Source of the DNA: a bacterium
GTDB lineage: Bacteria; Campylobacterota; Campylobacteria; Campylobacterales; Arcobacteraceae
Direction: 5' to 3'
Length of the DNA: 64,000 nucleotides
Assembly: GCA_018816105.1 (NCBI GenBank)
Contig: JAHIWE010000113.1
Coordinates: forward strand, 13,340-77,339
Shown one piece after another: positions 652 through 29,982 of this stretch. The notes under the pieces are model-generated. The model saw only the letters and a program-made list of their open reading frames with translations, did not search any database and was not told the origin of the DNA. Both the position numbers and the translations under genes were made by a program. Each line of letters opens with the position of its first letter. Position 1 is the first letter of the stretch.

Positions 652-2199
652 ATGAAAATATTTACTCATTTAATTATTATATTTTTTATTGTTACAACTC
701 TTTATTCAAATGAAACAAACGAAGATCAAGTAAAAGTTGCATATGTTTATAATTTTTTAAAAAATATATCATGGAAAAATGAAGATAAAATAAAAAAATA
801 TCGTTTACTAGTAGCCTCTGAAAACAAAACTTTAAAAAATATGTTCTTAATGCTTGGTTCAAGAAAGCAATTAAAAAATAAAAATTTAGAAATTTTAATT
901 TATGACGATAAAAAAACCTATGAAAATATTCAAGCTATTTATATTGATGACTCTTACGTAGAGATATATGAAAAACTATTTTTTGAATTTGAAAAAAAGA
1001 ATACCTTGTTTATTAGTAATGAATATAAAGATAAAAAACATGTTATGATTAATTTATTAAAAGATGAAACCCAAATTACTTTTGAAATAAATAAAGCAAA
1101 TATATTAAATCGTTCATTGGAAATTTCAGCAAATCTTATACTTTTAGGTGGAACACAAATTGATGTTGCAAAACTTTACAAAAGTTCGCAAGATGCATTA
1201 AAAATACAAAAAGAAACTATCAACTCTTTAAATCAAAGAATTAAAGATAAAAACTTAGAATTAATATCAAAAATAAATTCAATAGAAGAACAAAAATTAG
1301 TTATCACAGCTCAAACAAAAAATATTAAAAACTATGAAGAAAAATTGAATGCACAAACAAAACTTCTTCAAAAACAAACTATTCAACTAGAAGAAGAGAA
1401 AAGACAATTAAAAGAAATTTATAAAAATATAGAATCTCAAAAAGAGAAACTTTTAAATGCTGTTTTAAATGTAAAAGAAAAAGAAGGAGTTGTTACATCA
1501 CTTGTAAATTTACAAAAAGAGAAACAAGAAGAATTTGAAAAAGCAAAAAAAGATTTAGAGTTTTTAAATTCACAGATTCAAGAACAAAAAAATAACTTAT
1601 TAATTAAAGAAAATATTATTTCTGAACAAAAAAATGCAATGGCTGTTTTAGCAGTACTTTTTATTATTATTTTAATATTAGGGATAAATGGAATAAGACA
1701 AAATAAACTTTTAAAGAAATTATCTCAAATTGACTCGTTAAGTGGTTTATATAATCGTCGATTTATAAATCAAAAACTTGAAGAAGAAATTTTAAAATTT
1801 AAAAGATATAAAACTCTATTTTCTATACTCTTGATTGATGTTGATTATTTTAAAAAAATCAATGATAACTATGGACATGATAAAGGTGATTTTGTAATCA
1901 AAAAAATATCTTCATTAATTCAACAAAATACAAGAAATACAGATATAAATGCAAGATGGGGAGGAGAAGAGTTTTTAATTTTAGCTCCAAATAGTGATTC
2001 AATTGGTGCCTTAAAACTTGCAAACAATTTAAAAGAACTTATCGAAACTTATCAATTTGGTGTAGACTACAAAGTAACTATTAGTATTGGAGTTTCTACT
2101 TTTGATGAAAATTCAAATCTAGAAAAACTACTAAAACTTGCGGATGATGCTCTTTATAAAGCAAAAAAAAATGGTCGAAATAGAGTTGAGATGGCTTAA
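652..2199 (+). CDS. Diguanylate cyclase with N-terminal YfiR-like periplasmic domain, long coiled coil, TM helix and GGDEF domain
   Basis: N-terminal hydrophobic segment; 'EDQVKVAYVYNFLKNISW' resembles the YfiR/DUF4154 signature; Q/K/E-rich heptad region; TM AMAVLAVLFIIILILGI; 'DSLSGLYNRR', 'DVDYFKKINDNYGHDKGD', RNTD I-site, 'RWGGEEF'. Confidence 0.85.
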   Translation: MKIFTHLIIIFFIVTTLYSNETNEDQVKVAYVYNFLKNISWKNEDKIKKYRLLVASENKTLKNMFLMLGSRKQLKNKNLEILIYDDKKTYENIQAIYIDDSYVEIYEKLFFEFEKKNTLFISNEYKDKKHVMINLLKDETQITFEINKANILNRSLEISANLILLGGTQIDVAKLYKSSQDALKIQKETINSLNQRIKDKNLELISKINSIEEQKLVITAQTKNIKNYEEKLNAQTKLLQKQTIQLEEEKRQLKEIYKNIESQKEKLLNAVLNVKEKEGVVTSLVNLQKEKQEEFEKAKKDLEFLNSQIQEQKNNLLIKENIISEQKNAMAVLAVLFIIILILGINGIRQNKLLKKLSQIDSLSGLYNRRFINQKLEEEILKFKRYKTLFSILLIDVDYFKKINDNYGHDKGDFVIKKISSLIQQNTRNTDINARWGGEEFLILAPNSDSIGALKLANNLKELIETYQFGVDYKVTISIGVSTFDENSNLEKLLKLADDALYKAKKNGRNRVEMA

Positions 2200-2265: not shown

Positions 2266-3507
2266 ATGAATAAAAAAGATATTAAAAAAGTAGTTTTAGC
2301 ATATAGTGGAGGTCTTGACACTTCTATTATTTTAAAATGGCTTCAAGATGAGTACAATGCTGAAGTTATTACTTTCACAGCTGATTTAGGTCAAGGTGAA
2401 GAAGTAGAGCCTGCACGAACAAAAGCTATAGCTTGTGGGATTAAACCTGAAAATGTTTTCATTTTAGATATTAAAGAAGAGTTCGTAAAAGATTATGTTT
2501 TCCCTATGTTTAGAGCAAATGCTATTTACGAAGGTGAATATTTATTAGGAACTTCAATTGCTCGTCCTTTAATTGCTAAAAAATTAATTGATATTGCAAA
2601 TCAAACGGGAGCAGAAGCTGTTTCACATGGTGCAACTGGAAAAGGAAATGACCAAGTTAGATTTGAGTTAGGTGCACTTGCACTTAGACCTGATATCAAA
2701 GTTATTGCTCCTTGGAGAGAATGGGATTTAAATTCAAGAGAAAGCTTACTTGACTATGCTAGAAAACATGGTATTGAAATTGCTCAAAAACATCTTGATA
2801 AAGATGGTAATCCTGCTATTAGTCCTTATTCTATGGATGCAAACTTATTACATATTTCTTATGAAGGTTTACATTTAGAAAACCCAAATAATGAGCCAGA
2901 AGAGTCAATGTGGTTATGGACAACATCTCCAGAAAATGCACCTGATGAAGCTGAATATTTAACATTAACATACAAAAATGGTGATCCAATTGCTATTGAT
3001 GGTATTGAAATGTCACCAGCAACATTACTTACTAAATTAAATGAGTATGGAAATAAACATGGTATTGGTAGAGCTGATATTGTTGAAAACAGATATGTTG
3101 GAATGAAGGCTCGTGGTTGTTATGAAACTCCAGGTGGAACTATCATGTTAAAAGCTCATAGAGCAATTGAATCTATTTGTTTAGATAGAGAAGCTGCTCA
3201 CTTAAAAGATGAGTTAATGCCAAGATATGCTAAGTTAATTTACCAAGGATATTGGTTCTCACCTGAGCGAGAAATGTTACAAGCTGCAATTGATGCAACT
3301 CAAAAACATGTTGAAGGAACTGTTAAAGTTAAACTTTATAAAGGTAATGTAACTGTTGTTGGAAGAGATTCTACTAAATCTTTATATAACGATGCTTACT
3401 CTACTTTTGAAAAAGATGAAGTTTATAATCAAAAAGATGCAGAAGGATTTATTAGACTTAATGCATTAAGATTTATCATCGCTGGTAAAAACCAAAACAG
3501 AAACTAA
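2266..3507 (+). CDS. argG: Argininosuccinate synthase
   Basis: '[11 protein letters not shown]', '[14 protein letters not shown]', '[14 protein letters not shown]', 'YETPGGT' motifs. Confidence 0.98.
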
Positions 3508-3510
3508 TAT

Positions 3511-3532
3511 TAAGGTGGATTTTTCCACCTTA
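3511..3532 (+). terminator. Hairpin after argG
   Basis: taaggtgga-tttt-tccacctta, a perfect 9-bp stem just after the argG stop, followed by a T-rich tract. Confidence 0.75.
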
Positions 3533-3575
3533 TATTAAAACTTTTTTCACTTACTTATTTTTTTTCTTTCATTTT

Positions 3576-3613
3576 TAATTGTAACTTAACTGTAATTGTA
3601 ACTTAACTGTAAT
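3576..3613 (+). repeat. Perfect 17-bp tandem duplication (taattgtaacttaactg x2 + taat)
   Basis: Units read directly at 3576-3592 and 3593-3609, plus a partial unit at 3610-3613. Confidence 0.95.
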
Positions 3614-3629
3614 CCTTAATAAATAGAAT
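3579..3629 (+). promoter_or_regulatory. Pho-box-like (OmpR/PhoB-family) direct repeats plus -10 element
   Basis: TTGTAAC-TTAA-CTGTAAT at 3579-3596 and 3596-3613 (11-bp half-site period), then exactly 10 nt, then TAGAAT (3624-3629). The same geometry occurs upstream of phnF. Confidence 0.7.
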
Positions 3630-3654: not shown

Positions 3655-4746
3655 ATGTATTTAAACGATTTAGAAAAAATCATTAACATAAACTCATATA
3701 CAAAAAACAAAAAAGGTGTAGATGAAGTTGGTACTATAATGTCTAAATGGATAGAAGAGTTAGGCTTTAAGTTAAAAACTTATAATAAAGAACATATTGG
3801 TAATCATCTCTTATTCTCCTCCTCTAAAAAATCTGGAAAAAAAATCTTACTTTTAGGTCACAATGACACTGTTTTCCCACCAAATAGTTTTGAAGGATTT
3901 TCCCAAGATGAAAAATGGGTTTATGGACCTGGTGTTTGTGATATGAAAGGTGGGAATATTGTTGCACTTCAAGCTCTTAGAAACATTTTCAATCAAAATA
4001 GTGAAATATATAATATAGACTTTTTACTAGTTTCTGATGAAGAAACAGGAAGTGACGACTCAAAAGAGATAACAGCTTTACTTGCACCAAATTATGACTA
4101 CTGTTTTGTATTTGAAGCAGCAGGAATTAATATGGAAGTTGTAACCCAAAGAAAAGGGGTTGGAACTTTTATAATTACAATAGAAGGACTTGCAAGTCAC
4201 GCGGGAAATCATTATGATAAGGGAATTGATGCTAATTTAGAAGCTTCTTATAAACTTCAAGAGTTGGTAAAACTTACAAATCTAAAACTTCAAACAACTG
4301 TTAATGTTGGAAAAATAAATGGGGGAATTGGTGCAAATACAATCTCTCCAAAATGTGAACTACTTTTAGAAATCAGATATACCACTAATGATGAAAAAAT
4401 AAGAGTTCTAACTGCATTAAATAGAATTACAAATACTTCTTACATTACAGGAACTATTTCAACACTTAGTGGCTCAATCCAAAGAGATGTAATGCAAGAA
4501 AATTCAAAACAACTAATACTAATAAAAGAGTTAGAAACTATCACTAACTCTAAAATCTTAAGTGAAAAAAGAGGTGGAGTTAGTGATGCAAATATAGTTG
4601 CAAGTTGTGGAGTAACTACACTTGATGGTTTTGGGCCTTTTGGTGATGGAGATCATACAATAAAAGAGAGAGCCTTAAAAAGTAGTTTTAACTCAAGAAT
4701 AGAGTTAATGACAAAAATCTTAAATCATTTTCAAACAAATTTATAA
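3655..4746 (+). CDS. M20 family metallopeptidase (glutamate carboxypeptidase-like)
   Basis: 'GHNDTVF', 'GPGVCDMKGG', 'DEETGS', 'FEAAG', 'SHAG', 'GGVSDAN', 'DGFGPFGDGDHT'; no signal peptide. Confidence 0.9.
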   Translation: MYLNDLEKIININSYTKNKKGVDEVGTIMSKWIEELGFKLKTYNKEHIGNHLLFSSSKKSGKKILLLGHNDTVFPPNSFEGFSQDEKWVYGPGVCDMKGGNIVALQALRNIFNQNSEIYNIDFLLVSDEETGSDDSKEITALLAPNYDYCFVFEAAGINMEVVTQRKGVGTFIITIEGLASHAGNHYDKGIDANLEASYKLQELVKLTNLKLQTTVNVGKINGGIGANTISPKCELLLEIRYTTNDEKIRVLTALNRITNTSYITGTISTLSGSIQRDVMQENSKQLILIKELETITNSKILSEKRGGVSDANIVASCGVTTLDGFGPFGDGDHTIKERALKSSFNSRIELMTKILNHFQTNL

Positions 4747-4758
4747 AAAGGGGACAAA

Positions 4759-5688
4759 GTGGCAAAAAGAAATATTGGTATGTGGTTATATCAAAATAGT
4801 GGTGGAGAACAAATCCAAAAGAAAATGATTAAGTTGTTAAAAGATAGGGAAATTGATGTTCTTGCAAATGTAAATTTAAAAAATGCTATTGCAAAAAATG
4901 GTCATATTATTTATGAGATGAAAGACAAAAAAGTAAAACTTGATAAATTAGATTTATTCTTCTCTTATAATGCAGGGGAACAAACTCCGTATCAAGTCTA
5001 TTTATATAAAGCCTTAAATAGAATCATTCCAATGATAAACTCTTATGAAGCATTTGAATTAAGTGAAGATAAATTTCATACCTCATTTTATTTACGTAAA
5101 CATGGAATAAGAACAGCTGATTATAAACTTTGTCATAGTGATGACTCTCATAGATTAAATACTATTATGAAACAATGGGAGAAAATGGTTTACAAACCAA
5201 CTGATGGTTGGGGAGGAATGGGAGTTACAAAAATAGACAGTGTTGAAGCTTTAAATATGTTAATTCCTTTTTTAAGTCAAATAAATCTTAAATATTTTTA
5301 TGTGGAAAAATATGTAGATTATGATAACACAGATTATAGAGTAGACATTGTTGATGGACAATATGTTGCTTGTTATGGAAGAAAAGCAGCAACAGGACAT
5401 TGGAAAACAAATGTTACAAGTGGTGGAAGTGTATTTTTAAGAGAAGCAAATGATGAGATAGTTAATCTTGCAATTAAAGCTAGTAAAACTTTAGGATTAG
5501 ATATTGCTGGTGTTGATATTATTTTTGATAGAAAAAAAGAAGAATATATAGTTTTAGAAGTAAATGGAATTCCTGCTTTTGCAACTCCAGATCAAGAAAA
5601 AATGGGCTTAAATTTTAACGATAAGAAAATAGATTTAATCGTTGATTTAATAGATAGAAAAACTATTAAAAAGGAAAATGAAAAATGA
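4759..5688 (+). CDS. RimK/LysX-like ATP-grasp amide ligase
   Basis: GTG start with GGGGA SD; 'EDKFHTSFYL', 'VYKPTDGWGGMGV', 'DYRVDIVDG', 'WKTNVTSGG', 'GVDII', 'LEVNGIPAF'. Confidence 0.88.
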   Translation: MAKRNIGMWLYQNSGGEQIQKKMIKLLKDREIDVLANVNLKNAIAKNGHIIYEMKDKKVKLDKLDLFFSYNAGEQTPYQVYLYKALNRIIPMINSYEAFELSEDKFHTSFYLRKHGIRTADYKLCHSDDSHRLNTIMKQWEKMVYKPTDGWGGMGVTKIDSVEALNMLIPFLSQINLKYFYVEKYVDYDNTDYRVDIVDGQYVACYGRKAATGHWKTNVTSGGSVFLREANDEIVNLAIKASKTLGLDIAGVDIIFDRKKEEYIVLEVNGIPAFATPDQEKMGLNFNDKKIDLIVDLIDRKTIKKENEK

Positions 5689-7181
5689 AAAAATTACCAA
5701 AAATAGGATTCTTATATTTAGATTTTGTATTACAATTCTTTAATAAATCAAACTTCAAAGCTTGGCCTGACAAAATAGAGTCTGTTACATATCATTGGAA
5801 AAATGATAAAGATAGATTCATAAAAGAGGTAAAAAGAAAAAAAATTGAAATTCTAGTTGGAAATATTCCAGCAACTGCCTATGAAACCTTTGTTGAAATA
5901 TCAAAAGAGTTGCCAAATGTAAGATTTGTTCCATCTATTGAAACACAATTTTCAAATAAATCAAAGGAAAATGTAACGCTTTTTTGTAAAAAATTTGATT
6001 TAGCAATTCCAAAAACAAAAATTTTTTATGATAAAGAAAAAGGTTATAAATATTTAAAAGAAAAAGCCTCTTATCCTCAAATCATCAAAAGATCTTATGG
6101 ACCATCAAATTATGGTGGATATTTTGTACATAAAGCTAATAATTTCAAAGAAGCAAAAAAACTTCTTGATGAGAAAAAATATAATCCAATTTATACTCAA
6201 AATGCTATTGATTTAAAAGATTCTGGGGATATTAGAGTAATGTTAATTGGTCATAAACCAATTTGTGCATTTTGGAGATATTCAGGTAAAAACCAATGGA
6301 TTACAAACACTTCACAAGGAGGTTCAATGTCATATGAAAATGTTCCTATGAATGCGTTAGAACTTGCCGTTAAAGCCTCAAAAGCTGCAAAAGCTGAATA
6401 TTGGGCTTGTGATATTGCAATTTGTGCAAAAACTGGAAAAGCTTATATTTTAGAGTGTGCGACTGCCTTTGCTGCATTTCCATATATACGAGATTGGATT
6501 TGTCAATATTTAATGTGGGATTTTTCAAAAGGAAGATTTAGCAAACCTCATATTCCCCTATTCTCTTGGGAAGAGTTAGGAAAAATTGATTCAAATTTAT
6601 TAAGAACTTTAAGACATATTGGCTTTAGTAAATACACAGCTAGTTATGATGGAGAATATTTTATCAATGATAAAAAAGATACCTATGAAATGGAACTAGC
6701 ACTTTTATCAGATGAATCTGATGTTCCTCAAAAACCAGAAGATTGTATCCAATTAGAGGCTAACAAAAATTATACAAAAGAGAAAATATTTGAAATAAAC
6801 AAGATAAATTTAAATACTGCAACACTAACTGATTTAATGTCACTTTATGCAATGGAAGAGGATTTAGCTTTACAAATACAAGAGTATCTTCAAGACAATA
6901 TCATTACAGATAGTTCTGATTTATTAGAACTTGAAGCAATAGATGAACAAATGCTTAAATCTTGGGATAGAAATATTGATGATATGAGAGTAGATATAAA
7001 TAGAATTGATAAAGATAATTTGAGAAAAATAAAAGGTATTGGTAAAAAATTAGCAAAAATAATCTCTGAACACAGAGATGCCAATGGATATTTTAAAAAT
7101 CTAGATGAATTAAAAGATATTGAAGGAATTGGCAAAAATAAATTTGCCCAATTAAAATCCCGATTAAAAATAGGAGAATAA
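5685..7181 (+). CDS. ATP-grasp domain protein fused to two C-terminal ComEA-type helix-hairpin-helix repeats
   Basis: ATGA overlap with the upstream gene; 'IIKRSYGPSNYGG', 'DIRVMLIG', 'WITNTSQGG', 'ACDIA', 'ILECA'; C-terminal 'INLNTAT...' and 'VDINRIDKDNLRKIKGIGKKLAKII...LKDIEGIGKNKF'. Confidence 0.85.
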   Translation: MKKLPKIGFLYLDFVLQFFNKSNFKAWPDKIESVTYHWKNDKDRFIKEVKRKKIEILVGNIPATAYETFVEISKELPNVRFVPSIETQFSNKSKENVTLFCKKFDLAIPKTKIFYDKEKGYKYLKEKASYPQIIKRSYGPSNYGGYFVHKANNFKEAKKLLDEKKYNPIYTQNAIDLKDSGDIRVMLIGHKPICAFWRYSGKNQWITNTSQGGSMSYENVPMNALELAVKASKAAKAEYWACDIAICAKTGKAYILECATAFAAFPYIRDWICQYLMWDFSKGRFSKPHIPLFSWEELGKIDSNLLRTLRHIGFSKYTASYDGEYFINDKKDTYEMELALLSDESDVPQKPEDCIQLEANKNYTKEKIFEINKINLNTATLTDLMSLYAMEEDLALQIQEYLQDNIITDSSDLLELEAIDEQMLKSWDRNIDDMRVDINRIDKDNLRKIKGIGKKLAKIISEHRDANGYFKNLDELKDIEGIGKNKFAQLKSRLKIGE

Positions 7182-7185
7182 GTTC

Positions 7186-9771
7186 TTGAAAAGGTTATAT
7201 AGGTCATATAGTGAATCAACAAACATTTTTAAAGAATTGGAAGCTAAATATCCTAATTATTTCAAAATTGAATCAATAGGTAATACTTGGGAAAATAGAG
7301 AGATAAATTTAATTACAATTTCAAAAGATATTAAAACAGCCGATTCAAGACCAGCTCTATTTTATACAGGAACTATTCATGCAAGAGAGTGGATTGGTCA
7401 TGAATTAGCTATAGAGTTTGCAATATATGTACTAAAAAATCTTGAAACTGACCCTACTTTACAAACTTACTTAAATGAAAGTACAGTTTATATGGTTCCT
7501 TGTGCCAATCCTGATGGTTATGAGTATTCAAGAAAACACTTCTCTTTTTGGAGAAAGAATAGAAGACAAAATGCTGATGGAACTTATGGAGTTGATTTAA
7601 ATAGAAACTTTCCTATAGGTTTTGTAAAATCAACTGCTACTACTTCAAATGTTTATGGAGGACCTGAACCATTTTCTGAACCTGAAACACAAGCTCTTAG
7701 GGATTTTGTTTTAAGTCATTCTAATATTACAATAGCTTTAGATTATCATAGTCAAGGAAATGTATTTTTTCCTGCCCACGATTTTAGACATGAAGATACT
7801 ATTGATACAACTGATATGAACACTTTATGTGCAAATATGACTGAAGAGATTAGAAAAATATCAGGTCGAGAGTATGGAATACATCAAGGTAAACCACCAG
7901 CAAAATTAATAGGAGGAAGTGGAAGAGAATTTTATTATTCAAATAAAATTATCTCATCTGTTGTAGAAGTTGGAACTAGAAATATAAGTGATTATATGGA
8001 AGATATGAACGAAAATATTAGAGAACATATTCCAGCACTTATTTATGCCCTTAAAGAAGCTGATAATTACGCTAAAGACAATATTATGAAAAGGGTTAAC
8101 TCTTTTAATGTTACAGAAATTGGCTCAAACCACGTAAATCTAAAATGGGATTATGAATTAAACGAAAATACATATTTTGAAATTTTTAGAAGTACAAAAG
8201 ATAAACAATTTTGCAATAGTTCAAATTTAATCTCAAAAACTCAAAGTTTAGAGTTTAATGATATTAATCTAGGTTCAAATAAAGATTATTACTACAATAT
8301 AAGAGCTGTAAATAAAAAAACAAACCAAAAATCACCCTTTTATCCACAAATAAAAATACGTACATTAATAGAATATGATGAATATAGTAGAACCTACTAT
8401 GCAAATGCAAAAGGTACTGGATATGTGGCAGAAAATCTAAATAATAATCCTAGTCATTTTGGAGTGAACTCATTGTTTGTAGGAGTTGATGAAAATAAGG
8501 GAATTTCATATGCAGTTATTTCTATTAATGTAAAATCACTTCCATCAAATGCTTTAATAAAATTAGCTTCAATTAATCTATACCCAATAAATAGAGTTTC
8601 AACAACTATTGAAAAATATGGTGAGTGGAATATAGGACTTGTAAATCAAGAAACTATGGGAGATATTACAAACTTTGATGATGTAGCTAATATGCAAATA
8701 ATAAGATATGTTGGACGTCCTACAGAATCACACCAATTAACCCAAGGAATTTGGAGGACTTGGAGTCTGTCTGGTTTGGAATGTAATGATTTAAAAAAAT
8801 CAATTAAAAATGAAGCTATTGTTTTAAGAGTTGAAGGTCCAAAAGAGCTAAGAATTGGAAGAACAAAACAGATGATGCAATGGGATATTGGTTATGGCTC
8901 ATTTGGTTTTGGATTGGCTTATAGACCAAGATTAGAACTAACCTATACAATTGAACCAACCACAACTGCTCTTTATGCTAAATCAATTAAAACAGTTAGT
9001 AAAGCTGAGCTTATAGATGATGTGATTACAGCTGGTTTTGATGTAAAGGGAAATAAGATATATTCAACTTTTCAATTTAATTTATCTTCTCTTCCTCCAT
9101 ACAATGACACCATGATTACTAAAGCCTATTTTGAATTAAACTCTACAAAGATTTATATAAAAGATGATATTAGGTTTCATTTAGAATTTGTGGATGAAAA
9201 TATTGATAAAAACTATGAAGATATTACAAATAGAGAAATAATTCAAAATATCGGTTATGATGTAAGTGCAACAGAATTAAAAAATAATCAAACCCAATAT
9301 TTTATGTTTGATTCTTTTTCTGAAATAATTTTAAATGAAAAACTAAAAAGCAAATCTGATATTTCATTTGTGTTAGAACCCACTTCTGCATTAAAAATTA
9401 TAAAAAATAAAACTGTTTCATGGGAAGTATCAAATAAATCTTTATGTCCAAAACTTATTCTTGAACATATACCAAAAAGAAGATTTCCTATTGAAAAAAT
9501 TACAAATGCAAAATTATCCTTAGAAAATGGGAAAATAAAAATCTCTTGGACAAATCCTAAAAATCCAGATTTTGTAGGAGTAAAAGTAATAAAAAATCCA
9601 TTTAGAAAACCTATTTCAGCACAAGATGGACAAAAACTTTATGCAGGAGTTGATGAGTATACTTTAGATGATTTTGGAGCAAGTGATATAAATAAATACT
9701 ATGCAATATTTACCTACGATGATGTTCCAAATTATTCAAAACCTATAATTTTAGAGTATATTGCTAAATAG
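7186..9771 (+). CDS. M14 zinc carboxypeptidase with FN3-like and beta-sandwich accessory domains
   Basis: TTG start with AGGAG SD; 'HAREW', 'NPDG', 'WRKNR', 'GVDLNRNF', 'DYHSQG', 'VEVG'; FN3-like 'VNLKWDY...YYYNIRAVN'; two 'S(L)P...I..A...' segments resembling DNRLRE/CBM96-type domains; no signal peptide. Confidence 0.85.
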   Translation: MKRLYRSYSESTNIFKELEAKYPNYFKIESIGNTWENREINLITISKDIKTADSRPALFYTGTIHAREWIGHELAIEFAIYVLKNLETDPTLQTYLNESTVYMVPCANPDGYEYSRKHFSFWRKNRRQNADGTYGVDLNRNFPIGFVKSTATTSNVYGGPEPFSEPETQALRDFVLSHSNITIALDYHSQGNVFFPAHDFRHEDTIDTTDMNTLCANMTEEIRKISGREYGIHQGKPPAKLIGGSGREFYYSNKIISSVVEVGTRNISDYMEDMNENIREHIPALIYALKEADNYAKDNIMKRVNSFNVTEIGSNHVNLKWDYELNENTYFEIFRSTKDKQFCNSSNLISKTQSLEFNDINLGSNKDYYYNIRAVNKKTNQKSPFYPQIKIRTLIEYDEYSRTYYANAKGTGYVAENLNNNPSHFGVNSLFVGVDENKGISYAVISINVKSLPSNALIKLASINLYPINRVSTTIEKYGEWNIGLVNQETMGDITNFDDVANMQIIRYVGRPTESHQLTQGIWRTWSLSGLECNDLKKSIKNEAIVLRVEGPKELRIGRTKQMMQWDIGYGSFGFGLAYRPRLELTYTIEPTTTALYAKSIKTVSKAELIDDVITAGFDVKGNKIYSTFQFNLSSLPPYNDTMITKAYFELNSTKIYIKDDIRFHLEFVDENIDKNYEDITNREIIQNIGYDVSATELKNNQTQYFMFDSFSEIILNEKLKSKSDISFVLEPTSALKIIKNKTVSWEVSNKSLCPKLILEHIPKRRFPIEKITNAKLSLENGKIKISWTNPKNPDFVGVKVIKNPFRKPISAQDGQKLYAGVDEYTLDDFGASDINKYYAIFTYDDVPNYSKPIILEYIAK

Positions 9772-9794
9772 ATTTTCGCTATTTAGCAGTTTTT
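9762..9794 (+). terminator. Intrinsic terminator closing the peptidase/ATP-grasp operon
   Basis: tgctaaatag-attttcg-ctatttagca, a 10-bp stem overlapping the stop codon, followed by gttttt. Confidence 0.75.
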
Positions 9795-9841
9795 AAAGCT
9801 CAAAAGCTATAATATTTTAAAAAACTTTACAGGATTAAAAT

Positions 9842-10342: not shown

Positions 10343-10356
10343 GAAATATTGTAAAT

Positions 10357-10378
10357 AATAGGTTTAAAAAAACCTATT
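10357..10378. terminator. Bidirectional hairpin between convergent genes
   Basis: aataggttt-aaaa-aaacctatt. Confidence 0.6.
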
Positions 10379-11303
10379 ATTTACATTTACTATATGCTTC
10401 TTGAAGTTTTGAGTATAAGTCATCAAAACCTACATCATCCATTTTTTCAAGTAAATCAACCATTACTACATTGTCTTCATTACCATTCCAAACTTTGATG
10501 TAAGAACCTTCTTTATATCCATTATCTTGTCTAAATTGATTTAAACAGTTTTTACCAATATAAAGTTTTTGTAACCACATAAAAGATAATCCAGAGATTT
10601 TACAACATCTAAAGAATTGATCAATAAATCTTTCAATTCCACTAAATGAAGGCATATTCCCAGTATCAATTGCAAGTGAAATATATGATAGTTTTTCAGC
10701 TTCTTTTACCATTAATTTAACATCTACTTCTTGAAATACTTCATAAATACAGTGTGTATTTACAAGTGAAACTGCTTTTGGTACATTTGTTTCTTGTAAA
10801 ATATAAGACATTAAAAAATGCCAAATATCAACAAGCTCAACGTGGATATTATTCATATCAGGATCTGAGTTAATATTTTTCCAATGTTTCCATGGAGTTG
10901 ATTCAATTAACTCAGCAACTTCCATATGAATACATCTTAACCAGTTTATCTCTTTTCCAAATTTGTTTGAACCTAGTTCCCAATTTTTACCATTTGTAGA
11001 GTCATTTAATTTCTTTTGTAATAAAAACATCTCTTCTAGCTTGTGGGGAAATGATGATACCTCTTCAAGAAGTGAAGCTAAAGGTAAACACTCTTCAATA
11101 ACATTATCTAAAGATGAATTCATAGGTAATAACTCTTTTTCACCTTTTAATAAATGTAAAAGTAATGATACCATATAAGGAACATCATTTTTCTCTTCCC
11201 AATTTAAAACATCATTAGATGTAACACCTGCATAATGCATAAAATCTTCAATACTTAAAAAACCTAGTGATTTAATACTCTCTTTAAAATCTTTATATAA
11301 CAA
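10377..11303 (-). CDS. dut: Dimeric (all-alpha) dUTPase with ~85-aa N-terminal HTH-like extension
   Basis: 'LQKKLNDSTNG', 'MEVAELIESTPWKHWK', 'VELVDIWHF', 'YIGKNCLNQFRQDNGYKEG', 'EDN' are Campylobacter-type dUTPase motifs. Confidence 0.88.
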   Translation of the reverse strand: MLYKDFKESIKSLGFLSIEDFMHYAGVTSNDVLNWEEKNDVPYMVSLLLHLLKGEKELLPMNSSLDNVIEECLPLASLLEEVSSFPHKLEEMFLLQKKLNDSTNGKNWELGSNKFGKEINWLRCIHMEVAELIESTPWKHWKNINSDPDMNNIHVELVDIWHFLMSYILQETNVPKAVSLVNTHCIYEVFQEVDVKLMVKEAEKLSYISLAIDTGNMPSFSGIERFIDQFFRCCKISGLSFMWLQKLYIGKNCLNQFRQDNGYKEGSYIKVWNGNEDNVVMVDLLEKMDDVGFDDLYSKLQEAYSKCK

Positions 11304-13917: not shown

Positions 13918-16287
13918 ATGTTTTTGCAGATAATAGAACAATTAAAAATAATGGTCCCATATTTGCCACAAATTATGCAACAAGCTAAATTTGGAATTAC
14001 AATAACAGACCCAAATAAAAAAGACAATCCTTTGGTCTATGTTAATAAATATTTTTGCGAAATGTTTGGTTATGAATATGAAGAAGTTATTGGAATAAAT
14101 TGCAGATTCCTTCACGGTAGTGATAAAAATCAAGATTCTATAAAAGATATTAAAAATGCAATAGATAAAAGAATACCTATTACTAGAATTTTAAGAAATT
14201 ATAAGAAAGATGGTACCTTAATTTATGCAGAACTTAATATTACACCTATAATGGAGAATAATAAATTAAAATTCTTTTTAGGTATTCAAAAAGATTTATC
14301 TTTTGAAAAAAATTTATCAGAAAAGATTAGAAATGCACAAGAGTTATCTAATATTGGATATTGGGAATTAGATTTAATAAAAAATAACCTTTATTGGTCA
14401 GATCAAATATTTGATATTTTTGAAATTAATAAAAATCAATTTGCAGCTTCATATGATTCTTTTTTAGAACTAATACATCCAGATGATAGAGATTTAGTAA
14501 ATGATGCTTATTTAAACTCTTTAAAGACTAAAGAAAAATATTCAATACAACATCGTTTATTAATGGCAGAGGGTAGAATAAAATATGTAGAGGAAAGATG
14601 TGTTACTCATTTTGATAAAGATGAAATAGCAATTAAATCTATTGGAACAGTTCAAGATATTACAAAAATAAAAGAAATTGAGATAGAACTTAAAAAAGCA
14701 TTATCTTTAATGGACTCATACAAATTGGCTATGGATAAATCAAGTATAGTGTCTAAATCTGATTTGAAAGGCATAATAACTTATGTAAATGACAATTTCT
14801 GTGCTATATCAAAATATACAGAAGATGAACTCATTGGAAAACCTCATAGCATAATTAGACATCCAGATAATAAAAAAGAGATCTATGAAGATCTATGGGA
14901 AACTATACAGTCAAAAAAAATATGGAAAAAAATATTAAGAAATATTAATAAATATGGAGAAGAGTATTGGGTTAATACAACTATTTTACCAATTACTGAT
15001 CAAAATGATACTATCATTGAGTATATAGCAATTAGACATGATATTACAAATACTATTGAACAAAAAAACAGATTAGATAATATTGCTAATATAGACTCTC
15101 TAACAGGATTATACAATAGGAACAAGTTATACGATGATATAAATAAAAGTATTGCTCCTGCATTAGCTATAGTTAATATTGACAGATTCTCTGAAATTAA
15201 TGATTTTTATGGACATTCTTTAGGAGATCATTTTATTAAAGAATTTTCTCAGCAATTATCTAATTGTAAAAATTGCAATCATTTAAATATATATCGTCTT
15301 CAAGGTGATGAATTTGTAATATTTAATGATAATGCAAATAGAGATAAATTTCTAGATAAAATTTATGAAATAGATAAAAAACTTAGAAAAGAAAAAATAG
15401 AAATAGATAATGATTATATTTATTTAGATTTTTCAATTGCAATTTCATATGAGTCCAAGGAAGTATTATTAAGAACTGCAGATATGGCTCTAAAAGCAGT
15501 GAAAAAAGATAATAAAAATATTTTAGTTTATAATGATAATATATCTAGAAGTGATGAATATAAAAACAATATTAAATGGTCAAATATTGTAAGAGAAGCT
15601 TTAAGAGAGGATAGAATAGTTTCTTTGTATCAACCTATTATAAATAATAACACAATGAAGTATGAAAAATATGAATCATTAGTAAGAATTAAAGAAAATG
15701 GTAAATATATATCTCCATTTTATTTTTTAAGTATTGCAAAAAAAACAAGACACTATGTTGAAATCACTAAAACAATGATTGAAAAAAGCTTTAAATTATT
15801 TGAAAATAAAAAAGAAGAATTTTCAATAAATTTAACAATTGAAGATATCTTGAATGAAGATACAAAAGAATTCATAATTAACATGCTTAATAAATATAAA
15901 ATAGGAGATAGAGTTGTATTTGAAATTGTTGAGTCTGAATCTATAGAAAACTTTGAAAATATATCTAAATTTATAGTTTTAGTAAAAGCACTAGGTTGCA
16001 AAATTGCAATAGATGATTTTGGAACAGGATACAGTAATTTTGAATATCTTGTAAAATTAAAAGCTGATTATATAAAAATAGATGGTTCTTTAATCAAAGA
16101 TATAGATAAAAATCATATTAGTGAAATTGTTTGTAAGAATATTGTAAATTTTGCAAAAGATCTAAATATGAAAACTATTGCGGAATTTGTAGAAAATGAA
16201 TCAATTTTCAATAAAGTAAAAGAGTTAGGAATAGACTATTCTCAAGGTTATTATTTTGATAAGCCATTAGAAATAAGTAAAGAATAA
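13918..16287 (+). CDS. LOV-PAS-PAS-GGDEF-EAL protein (probable c-di-GMP phosphodiesterase)
   Basis: LOV-type PAS 'ITDPNKKDNPLVYVN...GINCRFLHG...NYKKDG...FLGIQKD'; two further PAS domains; degenerate 'QGDEF'; EAL 'YESLVR', 'EIVES', 'IDDFGTGYS', 'IKIDG', 'SQGYYF'. Confidence 0.9.
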   Translation: MFLQIIEQLKIMVPYLPQIMQQAKFGITITDPNKKDNPLVYVNKYFCEMFGYEYEEVIGINCRFLHGSDKNQDSIKDIKNAIDKRIPITRILRNYKKDGTLIYAELNITPIMENNKLKFFLGIQKDLSFEKNLSEKIRNAQELSNIGYWELDLIKNNLYWSDQIFDIFEINKNQFAASYDSFLELIHPDDRDLVNDAYLNSLKTKEKYSIQHRLLMAEGRIKYVEERCVTHFDKDEIAIKSIGTVQDITKIKEIEIELKKALSLMDSYKLAMDKSSIVSKSDLKGIITYVNDNFCAISKYTEDELIGKPHSIIRHPDNKKEIYEDLWETIQSKKIWKKILRNINKYGEEYWVNTTILPITDQNDTIIEYIAIRHDITNTIEQKNRLDNIANIDSLTGLYNRNKLYDDINKSIAPALAIVNIDRFSEINDFYGHSLGDHFIKEFSQQLSNCKNCNHLNIYRLQGDEFVIFNDNANRDKFLDKIYEIDKKLRKEKIEIDNDYIYLDFSIAISYESKEVLLRTADMALKAVKKDNKNILVYNDNISRSDEYKNNIKWSNIVREALREDRIVSLYQPIINNNTMKYEKYESLVRIKENGKYISPFYFLSIAKKTRHYVEITKTMIEKSFKLFENKKEEFSINLTIEDILNEDTKEFIINMLNKYKIGDRVVFEIVESESIENFENISKFIVLVKALGCKIAIDDFGTGYSNFEYLVKLKADYIKIDGSLIKDIDKNHISEIVCKNIVNFAKDLNMKTIAEFVENESIFNKVKELGIDYSQGYYFDKPLEISKE

Positions 16288-21631: not shown

Positions 21632-22225
21632 ATGAAACTAGAATACTCAGGATTAAAACCAGTTATTAGTGAACACGGAATATCTTTTAAAGATGGGAAA
21701 GAGGATAAATTTATTTATCTAAAATTTGCAATTGATATTTTAAATGCCATAGATCATACCTATGAACAAAAAAGAAAATACTCTCATCAAGTAAATACAA
21801 AACCTTTAACTCCAAATGAGATTATTGATATTTTATTAAAATATCATCCTAATTTGGAACTTAATATGAATAAAGAGATTGAATCTTATTTGCATCATTT
21901 AAATGAAGAAGAAAGAATGGTTGAAAATAGGACTCACTTATTGGACCTTGAGAAAAAAACTTATATTTCAAATTTACAAATTATGAGAAATTACAAAATA
22001 CAAAGAGCTAAAAATAAAATATTTTATTTTCATTGTATTGAAACTATTGTAGAAACTATTTTAAAATATAAAATAAAAGAGCTAGATACTCCTTTTAATG
22101 AAAGATTTTGGCATATTTTACAAACAATAGAAGGAAATTTATCAGAACATAAAATCTCTTCAAATTTAAAAATAATAAATGAAGAAAACTCTTTAAAAGC
22201 TATGCTTACAATTAATATTTTTTAA
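21632..22225 (+). CDS. Hypothetical protein
   Basis: 197-aa ORF with AAGGA SD and normal composition; no motif recognised. Confidence 0.75.
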   Translation: MKLEYSGLKPVISEHGISFKDGKEDKFIYLKFAIDILNAIDHTYEQKRKYSHQVNTKPLTPNEIIDILLKYHPNLELNMNKEIESYLHHLNEEERMVENRTHLLDLEKKTYISNLQIMRNYKIQRAKNKIFYFHCIETIVETILKYKIKELDTPFNERFWHILQTIEGNLSEHKISSNLKIINEENSLKAMLTINIF

Positions 22226-22229
22226 AATA

Positions 22230-22895
22230 TTAAAATTGTTTTATCAAAGTTTTGTTTATATTTTCTAGTTCTTGATACTTATAAACTAACTCTTGATATT
22301 TTAAATTATAATCATTGTATAAAAAAGAGTAATCATTTTTCTCATCTTTATATTTATCATAACCTTTTTTAGAGCTATTTGATAAGGCACTAACAAAATT
22401 AAAAGAGTTAATAGCTGTTAATATTTCATCTAATCTATCTTTGGATATTACATCAGTTGAATTTTCACTTGGGTTATTTATTTTATTTGTAAAAGAACTA
22501 TGTAATAAATCAGCTAATGAGTTGTTCTTTGAAGAGGATAAAAACATATTTTTATCCTCATATCTATCAGTTAAATATGAAAAACCTAAATTAAAAGGTT
22601 GACCTAAAACTGTGTTAAATAAAGCCTTAGATAAATAGTCATCATTTGAAAAAAGAGTTGCAAGTCTTAAATTTTTTGCCATATTTTTATCATCTTCATT
22701 TTTAAATAATGTATCAATCTCTTCTAAGGAAATACCTTTTATATTTTCGTATGTTAAAGCATCAGTTTTAGGTGTAGTTGAGGCTTCTTTGCTTGTTACT
22801 AAATTACTTATAAATGACATTGAGTTATTATTTTGTATATTACTTGCAGAGTTTTGTAAAGCTGCTATTGTTGCATTTATGTTTGAAGTTATCAT
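22230..22895 (-). CDS. Hypothetical protein
   Basis: 221-aa ORF with low-complexity N/S-rich N-terminus; starts 12 nt after the phnP stop. Confidence 0.7.
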   Translation of the reverse strand: MITSNINATIAALQNSASNIQNNNSMSFISNLVTSKEASTTPKTDALTYENIKGISLEEIDTLFKNEDDKNMAKNLRLATLFSNDDYLSKALFNTVLGQPFNLGFSYLTDRYEDKNMFLSSSKNNSLADLLHSSFTNKINNPSENSTDVISKDRLDEILTAINSFNFVSALSNSSKKGYDKYKDEKNDYSFLYNDYNLKYQELVYKYQELENINKTLIKQF

Positions 22896-22907
22896 AATAA
22901 AACCTTT

Positions 22908-23645
22908 TTATAAAGTAAAAGAAAAATCTCCTTTTACATAAGGATATTTTAGTTCTATATTGTTTTGCAAAATATACTCTTGTGTTGTATGAGATATATG
23001 CATCAAATAAGCTTTTTCTACTTTCATTTTATCCAAAATTTCACTTGCTTGTAAATAATTTAGATGATTTCCTAGACTTTTTCTCTCATCATAACAAGCA
23101 TCAATAAAAGCATAATCTATTTTCTTAGTTAATAAAAAATCTAAACTCTCTTTTGAAATTCCACTACAATCAGTTAAATAAGCAATTGTTCTATCTTTAT
23201 ATTCTATTAAATATCCAAAAGTATTTTTTGAGTGTTTTAAAGGAATTGAAGTAAATGAAATATTTTTAATTTTAATAGTTTCAAATTGTTTTATTTCTTT
23301 ATAACATATTGAATGATTATATTTAAATAAATCAGAAAAACCATTTTCATCCTTTGGATGAAAGCAGTTTATTTCATCATTTGAATGTCTAAGTTTCAAA
23401 AGTCCTAAACAATGATCAGCATGGAAATGAGTAAGTAGAACTGTTTCTATTTTATTTCCATCAAATCGTGATGAAATATCTTCTATTCCTGCATCTAATA
23501 GGATTATAGTGTCATCAATTTTTATATATGCACAAGTTGAAAGATTTTGTTTTTTTTCTTCCCTATGATTTTCACAAACTATACAAGGGCAGTTATGAAC
23601 AGGAATTCCTGCACTATCACTGCTACCTAAAAAACTAAATTTCAT
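22908..23645 (-). CDS. phnP: Phosphoribosyl 1,2-cyclic phosphate phosphodiesterase (MBL fold)
   Basis: 'GIPVHNCPCIVC', 'LDAG', 'THFHADH', 'YLTD', 'NHLN', 'HISH'; terminal position in the phn operon. Confidence 0.9.
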   Translation of the reverse strand: MKFSFLGSSDSAGIPVHNCPCIVCENHREEKKQNLSTCAYIKIDDTIILLDAGIEDISSRFDGNKIETVLLTHFHADHCLGLLKLRHSNDEINCFHPKDENGFSDLFKYNHSICYKEIKQFETIKIKNISFTSIPLKHSKNTFGYLIEYKDRTIAYLTDCSGISKESLDFLLTKKIDYAFIDACYDERKSLGNHLNYLQASEILDKMKVEKAYLMHISHTTQEYILQNNIELKYPYVKGDFSFTL

Positions 23646-24165
23646 CTATTTCCTTTAATATATCAATAAAAGCTTTTATACTATCATCAAATGATTTATC
23701 ATTTTGAAATACTATAAGATTTCTAGCATAAATCTTATCATATTTTCTCTCTAATCTTTTTTCAATCTCTTTAATATTTTCTCTTCCTCTTTTGATAAGT
23801 CTTCGTTTTAATTCAACATCATTTAAAGTAATATTTATTACATAAACCTTATCAAAATGCTTTTCAAAATCAGCTATTTTTGATCTTGAAATAGAAATAA
23901 TATTTGTTTTATTTTTTATTGAATCTTTTGAAATTCCATATAAATTATTATGTGCTTCCCAAGAAGAGATAAAAAACTCATTCTCTTTCAAAAGTTTAAA
24001 AGCAGAGTTTTCTAAGAAAAAGTTTTTTTCATTTTTATCTGGTTTTCTTGTAATATAACGTCTTATAAAATTAAACTCTTTCTTTAACTCTTTTTTGGCT
24101 TCTTTTATTAATGTATCTTTTCCAACACCACTTGCACCAACAATTAAAATTATTTTTGTTTGCAT
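23635..24165 (-). CDS. phnN: Ribose 1,5-bisphosphate phosphokinase
   Basis: P-loop 'GASGVGKDT', 'RRYITR', 'WEAHNNLYG', 'RGRE'. Confidence 0.92.
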   Translation of the reverse strand: MQTKIILIVGASGVGKDTLIKEAKKELKKEFNFIRRYITRKPDKNEKNFFLENSAFKLLKENEFFISSWEAHNNLYGISKDSIKNKTNIISISRSKIADFEKHFDKVYVINITLNDVELKRRLIKRGRENIKEIEKRLERKYDKIYARNLIVFQNDKSFDDSIKAFIDILKEIDEI

Positions 24166-24167
24166 TT

Positions 24168-24812
24168 CTACTCTTTTTTTGAATATTTATAAATAAATTC
24201 TCTAATATCTTTTAAATCAGCCAATCTATCTTTGATTTCATTATGGCTCCAATCCCACCAAGCTATTTTTTCAATTGATAGGATAATATCACTTGGAAAT
24301 CTATATTTTAAGATTTTAGCTCCAACACCAGCAACTATAGCAAAAGCTGGTACATTTTTAGTTACGACTGCATTTGAACCTATTATTGCACCATTACCTA
24401 TTTTAATTCCAGGCATAATTACAGCACCATGACCTATCCAAGTATCATGACCAATTAGAACTTGTTGAGTTTTTCTATAATTAAAAAAAGCTTCATCATT
24501 TTCTCCAAATCCATACATTTCACGTCTATAAAGTAAGTGATGTTGACAAGGCATTTCGTAAGGGTGAAATCCTGGGTTTATTCGAACATTACTTGCAATA
24601 TTTGCAAACTTACCTATTTGTGTATTTGCAATTTGTGTGTATTCGCTCACATATGAATAATCACCCAATGAAGAATCACTAATATTTGCATAATTTGCAA
24701 TTTCAGTATACTTTCCGAAATATGAGTTTTTTATAATTGCATTAGGGAAAATGTATGGTTTTTCCCCTAATACTACTTTGGCTTCACTATTAAGACTCTC
24801 TATTTTTGTCAT
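24168..24812 (-). CDS. Phosphonate-metabolism hexapeptide-repeat acetyltransferase
   Basis: 'GDYSYV', 'IGKFANIASNVRINPGFHP', 'IGHDTWIGHGAVIMPG', 'AWWDW'; located within the phn operon. Confidence 0.88.
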   Translation of the reverse strand: MTKIESLNSEAKVVLGEKPYIFPNAIIKNSYFGKYTEIANYANISDSSLGDYSYVSEYTQIANTQIGKFANIASNVRINPGFHPYEMPCQHHLLYRREMYGFGENDEAFFNYRKTQQVLIGHDTWIGHGAVIMPGIKIGNGAIIGSNAVVTKNVPAFAIVAGVGAKILKYRFPSDIILSIEKIAWWDWSHNEIKDRLADLKDIREFIYKYSKKE

Positions 24813-24868
24813 TATATTTTACCTCTATATGCAATATACTTCTAAAAATCGTAACCATATTATTTCCT

Positions 24869-26008: not shown

Positions 26009-26010
26009 TT

Positions 26011-26715: not shown

Positions 26716-26720
26716 GCTCC

Positions 26721-29445: not shown

Positions 29446-29982
29446 TTAGATAACCTCCACTTTTGTAGTTCTTGATAGTGCAACTATTTGAGCATTTTCA
29501 TCTAAGAAGAAAACTTCATTTCCTAAAGGAAAATATGAATTTTTTTCATTAAAAAACTCGATAAACGACTTATCAACGGGAAGATTTACAATCTTTTCTT
29601 TATTAATTCCAGGACCACTTAGTTTTACTTTTAAACCATTAAAATCCTTACATTTAAAAATCAAAGTTCCTGAAAATTCAGGGTCCTTTGAAGTTCCTAT
29701 TTTTCCTTTAGTAAGTAAATATTCATTTATTTCATCACAAAAAATATAATCAGCTTCACACTCTTTAGTTTTTGATGCATTTGTAATTGCATCAAGTAAA
29801 TCAAACTCTTCAATACCTTCATAAAAATAACTCACTTCTGAATAAAGTAAACAATTTGCAATTGCCAAAAGATTTGATTCAAAAAGTGGTTTTATTTTTT
29901 CTATATTTCCTGGCATTGATAAGGCATTCATTATTGATTTAAAATTTTCTCTATTTAATTTTTCTATATCAACTATATTCAT
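29446..29982 (-). CDS. phnH: C-P lyase subunit PhnH
   Basis: 'MNALSMPG', 'GTSKDPEFSGTL', 'LSGPGI', 'FPLG', 'LSRTT'. Confidence 0.93.
   Translation of the reverse strand: MNIVDIEKLNRENFKSIMNALSMPGNIEKIKPLFESNLLAIANCLLYSEVSYFYEGIEEFDLLDAITNASKTKECEADYIFCDEINEYLLTKGKIGTSKDPEFSGTLIFKCKDFNGLKVKLSGPGINKEKIVNLPVDKSFIEFFNEKNSYFPLGNEVFFLDENAQIVALSRTTKVEVI

Follow-up and report, generated by a model that had tools for sequence, protein, structure and literature searches.

A four-gene locus of ATP-grasp proteins and metallopeptidases

A compact set of four genes lies near one end of a 64,000-nucleotide (nt) stretch of DNA from a member of the Arcobacteraceae (positions 13,340 to 77,339 of contig JAHIWE010000113.1, assembly GCA_018816105.1), whose nearest relatives are uncultured Aliarcobacter genomes at ~96% protein identity. 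This whole stretch is called the window here, and coordinates are counted from its first letter. The four genes, all on the + strand between 3655 and 9771, encode an M20 metallopeptidase, a canonical RimK-superfamily ATP-grasp ligase (hereafter AG1), a divergent ATP-grasp protein with a helix-hairpin-helix (HhH) tail (AG2) and an M14 carboxypeptidase (Table 1). They are read here, tentatively, as the parts of a cycle in which glutamyl tags would be added to and trimmed from a protein or polymer.

An earlier note on this DNA, made from the sequence alone, had described the genes as one operon. The open reading frames (ORFs) and their intergenic gaps of 12, -4 and 4 nt are confirmed in the ORF listing of the window, and hairpin terminators stand both before and after the set. 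The upstream hairpin belongs to argG, identified by the NCBIfam argininosuccinate synthase model at 634 bits; its region (3500-3555) folds at -15.6 kcal/mol (z = -6.1), and that of the terminator behind the M14 gene (9750-9805) at -14.8 kcal/mol (z = -3.8), each value being equalled by 0 of 200 shuffles. The next gene downstream, a gamma-carbonic-anhydrase-like gene, starts at 9842. The DNA around the operon is AT-rich (G+C ~28%), and a generic promoter and terminator scan is without information in such DNA, returning 44 promoter-like sites against 49 expected.

Contigs from four wastewater metatranscriptomes cover the entire operon, with pieces that cross the AG1/AG2 and AG2/M14 junctions. 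The junction-crossing contigs agree with co-transcription without proving it, as they carry no strand information and may derive from DNA. Contig depth over the operon is within a few-fold of that over argG in the same data, a poor measure of expression with possible DNA carry-over that supports no conclusion on induction.

Table 1. Positions of the operon genes, their flanking signals and the promoter site used for comparison
Feature	Position in window	Strand	Description
Hairpin terminator of argG	~3505-3537	+	Upstream operon boundary; core stem 3511-3532 also found by terminator scan
PhoB-type (Pho-box-like) direct repeats	3580-3613	+	Putative activator site; 17-nt unit TGTAACTTAACTGTAAT twice in tandem
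Putative -10 hexamer TAGAAT	3624-3629	+	Proposed from the sequence pattern
Gene 1, M20 metallopeptidase	3655-4746	+	363 amino acids (aa); putative carboxypeptidase G2/glutamate carboxypeptidase type; Pfam Peptidase_M20 and M20_dimer
Gene 2, AG1	4759-5688	+	309 aa; canonical RimK-superfamily ATP-grasp ligase; Pfam RimK 73.3 bits
Gene 3, AG2	5685-7181	+	498 aa; divergent ATP-grasp with ComEA-like HhH tail; Pfam RimK 50.2 bits, HHH_3 88.8 bits
Gene 4, M14 carboxypeptidase	7186-9771	+	861 aa; carboxypeptidase A/T type; Pfam Peptidase_M14 201 bits
Intrinsic terminator	9760-9795	+	12-bp stem overlapping the M14 stop codon, 7-nt loop, UUUUU run
Comparison site before phnF, outside the operon	33728-33760	-	TGTAATCTATCTGTAAT-N10-TATACT

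Conservation of the gene set

A scan with AG2 over one genome per GTDB species gave 296 relatives, of which the best 80 loci were kept. All four genes occur in the same order and on the same strand in 74 of these AG2-anchored loci, with median intergenic gaps of 8, 6 and 3 nt; five loci are cut by contig ends, and a single locus (L076) is an exception. Such adjacency is far beyond chance, and the conserved, co-oriented synteny that had been anticipated for the set is thus borne out in Campylobacterota and Desulfuromonadales. Hosts in the former comprise Arcobacteraceae, Sulfurospirillum, Hydrogenimonas, Nitratifractor and metagenome-assembled genomes (MAGs) labelled Sulfurimonas or Helicobacteraceae, and in the latter Desulfuromusa, Desulfuromonadales and Geobacteraceae MAGs. 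The same four genes are also found in Photobacterium sp. DA100, on a replicon of 2.1 Mb that is recorded as a plasmid (L081, NZ_CP119424.1 1686843-1705814), where the M20 gene is divergent from AG1-AG2-M14. Among cultured organisms the set is carried by Arcobacter nitrofigilis DSM 7299, Malaciobacter spp., Poseidonibacter spp., Sulfurospirillum arcachonense and Photobacterium sp. DA100.

The flanks differ between lineages: argG and the gamma-carbonic anhydrase gene in Arcobacteraceae, ffh-rpsP-rimM-trmD-rplS upstream in Sulfurimonadaceae-type loci, and pheA/tyrA/aroA, or DUF423 with an acyl-CoA ligase, in Desulfuromonadales. Because these surroundings change while the four genes stay together, the genes are taken to be a functional unit; they form a self-contained module that is vertically inherited and also present in three phyla. 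The literature searched, from which the 2009 amidoligase survey of Iyer et al. (which may mention such neighbourhoods) is set aside, yielded no published description of this operon; it is taken to be still uncharacterised, as the earlier note had supposed.

Clustering of all ORFs of at least 40 aa within 4 kb of the set in the 80 loci found no linked substrate, carrier or precursor, the neighbours being lineage-specific housekeeping genes only, and no ORF with a LysW-like C-terminus or an acidic tail was found in the window in any frame. This bears directly on the possibility that the operon makes a bioactive peptide (a graspetide or other ribosomally synthesised and post-translationally modified peptide, a Trojan-horse peptide or a product of L-amino-acid ligases), with the peptidases serving maturation or self-protection. 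Two or more ATP-grasp ligases accompanied by peptidases are typical of such clusters, and the graspetide ligases PsnB and MdnB are among the weaker fold matches of AG2. The set nevertheless has no conserved precursor ORF, exporter or immunity gene beside it and sits in housekeeping surroundings (argG, rplS, pheA, aroA). Its proteins are 49-96% identical across families, unlike those of fast-evolving secondary-metabolite clusters, and AG1 aligns with RimK and not with macrocyclases. A bioactive peptide is therefore considered improbable.

A few loci depart from the common arrangement. Extra AG1 paralogs occur in L036, L039, L069 and L073; that of the Arcobacter locus L036 (12232-13598), downstream of M14, is a 305-aa AG1-like ligase, 58% identical, followed by a 145-aa homolog of the AG2 HhH tail. 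In Arcobacter sp. LRMN1-1 (L006, 6486-8501), M20 and AG1 form one in-frame ORF of 671 aa, a fusion that may reflect loss of a stop codon or an assembly error. The exceptional L076 (7992-10944) is the sole locus with AG2 alone; its AG2 has a very lysine-rich linker ahead of the HhH repeat, and the ORF behind it, of 476 aa, looks, by eye only, like a SelO/YdiU-type protein adenylyltransferase.

The two ATP-grasp proteins

AG1 retains the catalytic motifs of E. coli RimK when aligned with 5zct and 4iwx, namely the Lys, the Gly-rich loop, D-x-R, N-x-x-x-GG, GVD and L-E-V-N. These motifs are kept across its orthologs, among which 83 of 309 residues are invariant (n = 76 sequences). The best family matches are to alpha-L-glutamate ligases: MptN at 145 bits (cutoff 350), the RimK family model TIGR00768 at 138.9 bits, just under its cutoff of 143.4, and CofF. 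Scores against the RimK equivalog NF007764 (63.2 bits, cutoff 331) and the LysX equivalog TIGR02144 (103.5 bits, cutoff 275.6) are far lower than required. Because it falls under the RimK, MptN, LysX and CofF cutoffs, AG1 is regarded as a relative of the alpha-L-glutamate ligases and not as a characterised ortholog. No rpsF gene occurs in the window or in the loci.

AG2 comprises an ATP-grasp region (aa 1-330, net charge +19), an acidic linker and two HhH repeats (aa 373-498, nt 6801-7178), and shares with AG1 only 26% identity over 85 aa. Across 79 sequences, 172 of its 498 positions are invariant, nearly all of them within aa 1-330. The family is narrow: of 1.84 billion representative proteins, only 24 score better than E = 1e-30; the weaker matches among those listed involve the HhH tail only, and AG2 apparently constitutes one new protein family. 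Its nearest folds are ArgX, LysX and RimK, a match used at family level only, as the AlphaFold2 model is poor (mean predicted local distance difference test score, pLDDT, of 61).

The active site of AG2 is unusual. The E-x-N metal motif is replaced by E257-C-A259 in 79 of 79 sequences and in Photobacterium, with D243 and E257 present and the remaining motifs (K135, GPSNYGG, D182-x-R184 and TNTSQGG) invariant. Because the Asn of E-x-N is Ala in every ortholog, AG2 would be a ligase of an unusual kind, or else a partner without catalytic activity.

The earlier note had listed gene 3 as a fusion of ATP-grasp and HhH domains. The HhH tail is present here, scoring well above the Pfam HHH_3 cutoff of 27 bits in two stretches with G-I-G hairpins and matching ComEA and Tex structures, but it is not a core feature of the family: the 440-449-aa forms in Sulfurimonadaceae-type loci have a shorter one, and Pfam detects none in AG2 of P0124, P0125 and Photobacterium. 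DNA binding through the HhH repeats was accordingly downgraded as a core mechanism, given this variability and the acidic character of the first repeat. The stand-alone HhH protein beside the AG1 paralog in L036 shows that the association of HhH and ligase recurs. The C-terminus of AG2 (...KIGE) was also considered as a self-substrate and rejected as a core feature, since only 41 of 79 orthologs end in E.

The M20 and M14 peptidases

No N-terminal signal peptide was seen in any of the four proteins when judged by eye, and the M20 enzyme of gene 1 is accordingly predicted to be cytoplasmic. Its best structural relative is carboxypeptidase G2 (CPG2; PDB 1cg2, E = 1.3e-22), and its metal-ligand and catalytic motifs are intact, with GHxDTV, CDMKGG, SDEExGS, FEAAG and GDGDH kept at 97% or more in 74 sequences. 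Among NCBIfam models it scores 193.6 bits against PRK07338 (cutoff 357) and 181 bits against the glutamate carboxypeptidase PRK06133 (cutoff 349). A weak match to [LysW]-lysine hydrolase (E = 1.3e-8) is also seen.

This last match, together with the resemblance of AG1 and AG2 to LysX and ArgX in sequence and fold, would suit amino-acid biosynthesis on a carrier protein of the LysW/AmCP type, in which a LysX/ArgX-like ligase loads the carrier and a LysK-like M20 hydrolase frees the product. Such a pathway is the least probable of the alternatives and can be given hardly any weight. No LysW-like ORF was found in the window or beside the operon in the 80 loci, and no kinase, reductase or aminotransferase of LysZ, LysY or LysJ type is linked to it. 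Both ligases lie far under the LysX cutoff (65.1 bits for AG2), and the M14 gene has no place in the scheme. Assignment to such a pathway, which by the earlier note would have refuted its proposal, is thus excluded to the extent that linkage and family scores reach.

The catalytic domain of the M14 enzyme occupies aa 1-297 (nt 7186-8076) and has CPA4, CPT, CPA2 and CPB as best PDB matches, with carboxypeptidases A4 and T at E = 1e-29 to 1e-27. H65, E68 and H188 (the zinc ligands), R123, N139, R140 and E261 are invariant and correspond to HxxE...H and the equivalents of Arg127, Asn144-Arg145 and Glu270, which places the enzyme in the M14A, carboxypeptidase A/T type. A further invariant residue, R247, stands opposite Ile255 of CPA4, in an alignment register that also places CPA Tyr248 correctly. 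Only a few residues, Ile255 among them, set the S1' specificity of carboxypeptidase A; for one bacterial M14 enzyme, a basic residue in that pocket was taken as a sign of an acidic substrate (PMC3940198). With Arg247 at this position, the M14 enzyme is therefore predicted to remove acidic C-terminal residues. It lacks the features of a secreted zymogen, having neither signal peptide nor N-terminal pro-domain; in the alignment with the CPT chain it starts at residue 9, and the ORF cannot be lengthened upstream, its start codon being the first to follow a stop.

The catalytic domain is followed by a 560-aa extension (nt 8077-9768) in which many residues are invariant across orthologs. AlphaFold2 (mean pLDDT 78) models it as an FN3 domain, two beta-sandwich domains and a second FN3 domain, with limits at 306-392, 399-590, 592-765 and 773-858. 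At the level of sequence, fn3 is matched weakly, and a stretch resembling DNRLRE, at aa 613-736, scores 32.8 bits (cutoff 34). For these C-terminal domains Foldseek returned matches to the M14 domain only, and Pfam searches of the isolated segments gave nothing significant.

M14 enzymes such as MpaA, Csd4 and Pgp1 trim muropeptides in the cytoplasm or periplasm of other bacteria, and the weak ATP-grasp matches include D-Ala-D-Ala ligases. Both points would fit recycling or remodelling of cell-wall peptides by an MpaA- or gamma-D-Glu-mDAP-peptidase-like M14 enzyme acting with peptide ligases. That explanation is very improbable: the M14 enzyme is of carboxypeptidase A/T type, with no M14C or Csd4 structure among its 54 PDB sequence matches, the ligases are of RimK type and not Ddl or Mur, and no murein genes are linked to the operon.

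A Pho-box-like promoter

The E. coli Pho box, CTGTCAT-N4-CTGTCAY, consists of two 7-bp direct repeats at a spacing of 11 bp, which stand in for the -35 element and end 10 bp upstream of the -10. A closely similar arrangement precedes gene 1. Each of the two 17-nt units consists of two TGTAAY half-sites at a spacing of 11 bp; the second of the tandem ends 10 nt before TAGAAT, giving a putative operon promoter TGTAAC-N5-TGTAAT-N10-TAGAAT at 3597-3629, and the other unit lies at 3580-3596. A -35 hexamer is absent at normal spacing, its place being occupied by the repeat units. The half-site CTGTAAT is identical to the E. coli CTGTCAT at six of seven positions, and the geometry is that of the E. 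coli-type Pho box.

The strict pattern TGTAAY-N5-TGTAAY-N10-TAnnnT has only two copies in the 64-kb window, one here and one before phnF, the first gene of a phnFCDEGH... carbon-phosphorus (C-P) lyase operon. It occurred in 0 of 200 simulated windows, with ~0.008 copies expected per window. Phosphonate operons are classical members of the Pho regulon. Among orthologous promoters, 23 of 73 score at least 10/12 on the half-sites and have a -10-like hexamer at the spacing seen here, as do 1.3% of shuffled controls, in a comparison for which the motif was defined from the operon promoter itself and the scored loci are phylogenetically related; the positives include Sulfurimonadaceae-type loci with otherwise unrelated intergenic sequence. 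Because the PhoB-type repeats resemble the promoter of the phosphonate operon, the four genes are probably induced by phosphate limitation in this lineage. No phoB, phoR or pst genes occur in the window, and no E. coli-type Pho box was found in the Photobacterium copy. The link to phosphate starvation that the earlier note had drawn thus has sequence support in this lineage, in the promoter architecture shared with phn; the idea of a phosphorus-free polyanion stays speculation.

The C-P lyase cluster itself is complete, spanning 22174-33855 of the window, with the minus-strand operon running from 33686 to ~22230 (phnF, C, D, E, G, H and downstream genes). A metatranscriptome contig joins 22173 to 33856 and so skips 11,682 nt, which indicates related strains without the whole phn cluster. 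The cluster behaves as a strain-variable island, at a depth 10- to 100-fold under that of its flanks, and comparison of phn with operon expression is confounded by its absence from some strains. Just upstream of the phnF Pho-box-like repeats (33760-33790, - strand) lies a perfect 16-nt palindrome, ACTTGTATATACAAGT, with an imperfect copy, AACTTGTATAGACATGT, nearer the phnF start codon (33700-33725, - strand); both resemble operators for a GntR/HutC-type PhnF repressor.

A predicted cycle of glutamyl addition and removal

The reading ranked first, to which we give somewhat less than an even chance, is a cycle that adds and trims glutamyl tags on a protein or polymer. The single operon would specify an ATP-driven cytoplasmic process in which the amino acids added and trimmed are acidic, most likely alpha-linked L-glutamate. 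Addition and removal of acidic residues is suggested because a RimK-type ligase, a RimK/LysX-like protein, a carboxypeptidase with Arg in S1' and a CPG2-like enzyme occur together. AG1 would activate a terminal carboxylate as an acyl-phosphate and then add an amino acid. AG2 would be either a further ligase, for priming the substrate or adding a residue of another kind, or a substrate-selecting subunit; its HhH tail could be an optional tether. The M14 enzyme, with its Arg at the bottom of the S1' pocket, would remove C-terminal acidic residues from a large substrate gripped by the FN3/beta-sandwich extension, and the CPG2-like M20 enzyme would hydrolyse the leftover X-Glu amide or small glutamyl by-products. 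As the target of the cycle, a protein (or a peptide or polymer) whose gene lies elsewhere in the genome is most likely. Of the reversible writer/eraser system proposed earlier, the glutamate logic fits the residues seen (the RimK motifs of AG1, the Arg of M14 and the CPG2-like M20), while reversal by the peptidases is carried forward as a prediction.

Whether the substrate is large or small separates this reading from the one ranked second, in which the ligases would make a free acidic peptide or glutamyl metabolite (an acidic oligopeptide, poly-alpha-glutamate or a glutamyl conjugate of a metabolite or cofactor) that the peptidases degrade or size, with no protein tag involved. Such a product might be stored, serve as an osmolyte or act as a phosphorus-free polyanion. 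A macromolecular substrate is favoured because the M14 extension is large, well folded and conserved, and because the nearest folds and sequences of AG2, weak as its model is, all act on protein C-termini. A small product is suggested because an M20 enzyme is present and no substrate gene is linked: enzymes of the M20/CPG2 type act on small N-acyl-glutamates and peptides. The best matches of AG1 include the cofactor glutamate ligases MptN and CofF, and the extra AG1 paralogs beside the operon would be expected for stepwise peptide assembly. Kino and colleagues reportedly found in 2011 that E. coli RimK produces free poly-alpha-glutamate in vitro, and a Pho-box-like promoter would suit the replacement of phosphate-rich polyanions. 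Against a free product, the highly conserved multi-domain extension of M14 is hard to explain with a small soluble substrate, while it would fit a polymer; the closest structures to AG2 act on proteins, and no transporter or further biosynthetic gene is linked to the operon. A free small product is possible on this evidence, with odds clearly on the side of its being wrong.

Several observations weigh against the glutamyl tag cycle and its control by phosphate. M20 enzymes mostly act on small molecules, so that a metabolite fits this gene at least as well as a protein does, and the operon has no linked substrate gene, carrier or acidic-tailed ORF. With AG1 under the curated RimK, MptN, LysX and CofF cutoffs, homology leaves its amino acid and acceptor undefined, and AG2 may not be a ligase, since the Asn of the E-x-N Mg2+ site is missing from every ortholog. 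In the M14 enzyme, a non-conserved Lys stands opposite CPA Tyr248, and the AlphaFold2 model is poor around the active-site loops. The phosphate link draws on one independent comparison site, the phn promoter, and does not extend to a Pho box in Photobacterium; in addition, the operon genes appear in metatranscriptome contigs from wastewater, an environment assumed not to be phosphate-poor.

A more specific form of the tag cycle can be stated, although taken as a whole it is doubtful. In this form, reversible C-terminal polyglutamylation would be switched on by phosphate limitation, with AG1 and AG2 as writers and M14 and M20 as erasers. The target would be a macromolecule, for example a ribosomal or nucleoid-associated protein, or the product a phosphorus-free poly-glutamate polyanion, and target selection would fall to AG2, as a new kind of ATP-grasp enzyme or pseudo-enzyme.

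Much work has been devoted to the reversible glutamylation of tubulin in eukaryotes; in bacteria the process is known essentially only for RimK acting on ribosomal protein S6. If the tag cycle is correct, the operon would be a second bacterial glutamylation system, self-contained, with its own two ligases and two erasers and perhaps tied to phosphate stress, in free-living Campylobacterota, Desulfuromonadales and one member of the Vibrionaceae. It would also add a new ATP-grasp family, AG2, and a cytoplasmic enzyme of carboxypeptidase A type with a predicted preference for acidic residues. Should the product instead be free poly-alpha-glutamate or a glutamyl metabolite, the pathway would still be an unreported one. 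The system is tractable because cultured hosts carry the operon.

Comparison with known systems

In operating principle the operon is closest to the RimK/RimB system of Pseudomonas and to the TTLL/CCP enzymes of eukaryotes, and it belongs to neither. The former, which glutamylates ribosomal protein S6 in E. coli and Pseudomonas, shares with it a RimK-superfamily ATP-grasp ligase with common catalytic motifs and, in concept, the encoding in one operon of a cytoplasmic ligase that adds alpha-Glu tails and a protease that removes them, RimB being the protease that removes the tails made by RimK. The pathway of RimK, RimA and RimB in Pseudomonas is described in PMC4741518. AG1, in contrast, is not a RimK ortholog, and the operon has two very different ligases; its erasers are M14 and M20 metallopeptidases, unrelated to the retropepsin-like RimB, and no link to S6 or cyclic di-GMP was found for it.

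Glutamylation of tubulin likewise combines ATP-grasp writers with M14 zinc carboxypeptidases that erase C-terminal acidic residues, the work being shared by several writers and erasers. CCP enzymes (M14D) have an H-P-G-E zinc motif and an N-terminal beta-sandwich (PMC3940198). The operon M14 is instead of A/T type, with the zinc motif H-A-R-E-W and its extra domains C-terminal, and no CCP structure is among its 54 PDB sequence matches; the operon ligases are RimK-like and not TTL-like.

For the individual peptidases, two further enzymes are instructive. Human carboxypeptidase O (CPO), which is acid-specific, has a basic residue, Arg275, at the position of CPA Ile255. It resembles the operon M14 in having an M14A-type catalytic domain without a pro-domain, and differs in being an extracellular or lipid-droplet-associated animal enzyme that lacks the FN3/beta-sandwich extension, whereas the operon M14 is predicted to be cytoplasmic and is encoded with ligases. 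The absence of a pro-domain renders CPO constitutively active, according to PMC6214572. Gene 1 shares the dimerisation domain and metal ligands of CPG2 from Pseudomonas sp. RS-16, an enzyme that releases C-terminal glutamate. CPG2 is periplasmic and acts on folates; gene 1, in contrast, has no signal peptide, scores far under the glutamate carboxypeptidase cutoff and sits in a ligase operon. The LysX/ArgX-LysW-LysK systems also pair a RimK-family ligase with an M20 hydrolase, and ArgX and LysX are the nearest folds to AG2, but the operon differs from them in lacking the carrier and pathway enzymes, in scoring below the LysX cutoffs and in having an extra ligase and an M14 enzyme.

Other features of the window

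Signalling proteins with EAL, GGDEF and PAS domains are unusually dense around the operon (window 652-2199, 13918-16287 and 35336-37222). A GGDEF protein lies ~1.5 kb upstream of argG, a position kept in many Arcobacteraceae loci, and in Photobacterium (L081) a response-regulator-GGDEF gene adjoins M20. A second M20-family enzyme is encoded at 44748-46067, unlinked to the operon; it is a relative of the PepD-like beta-Ala-His/cytosol dipeptidases (288 bits, cutoff 344).

On the minus strand at 10377-11303 lies a dUTPase of the dimeric type (dUTPase_2; NCBIfam dUTPaseEpsil 210 bits, cutoff 300); an additional N-terminal segment of ~85 aa matches no family. A perfect 16-bp hairpin at 10350-10385 stands between the dUTPase gene and the convergent gamma-carbonic-anhydrase-like gene and could terminate both.

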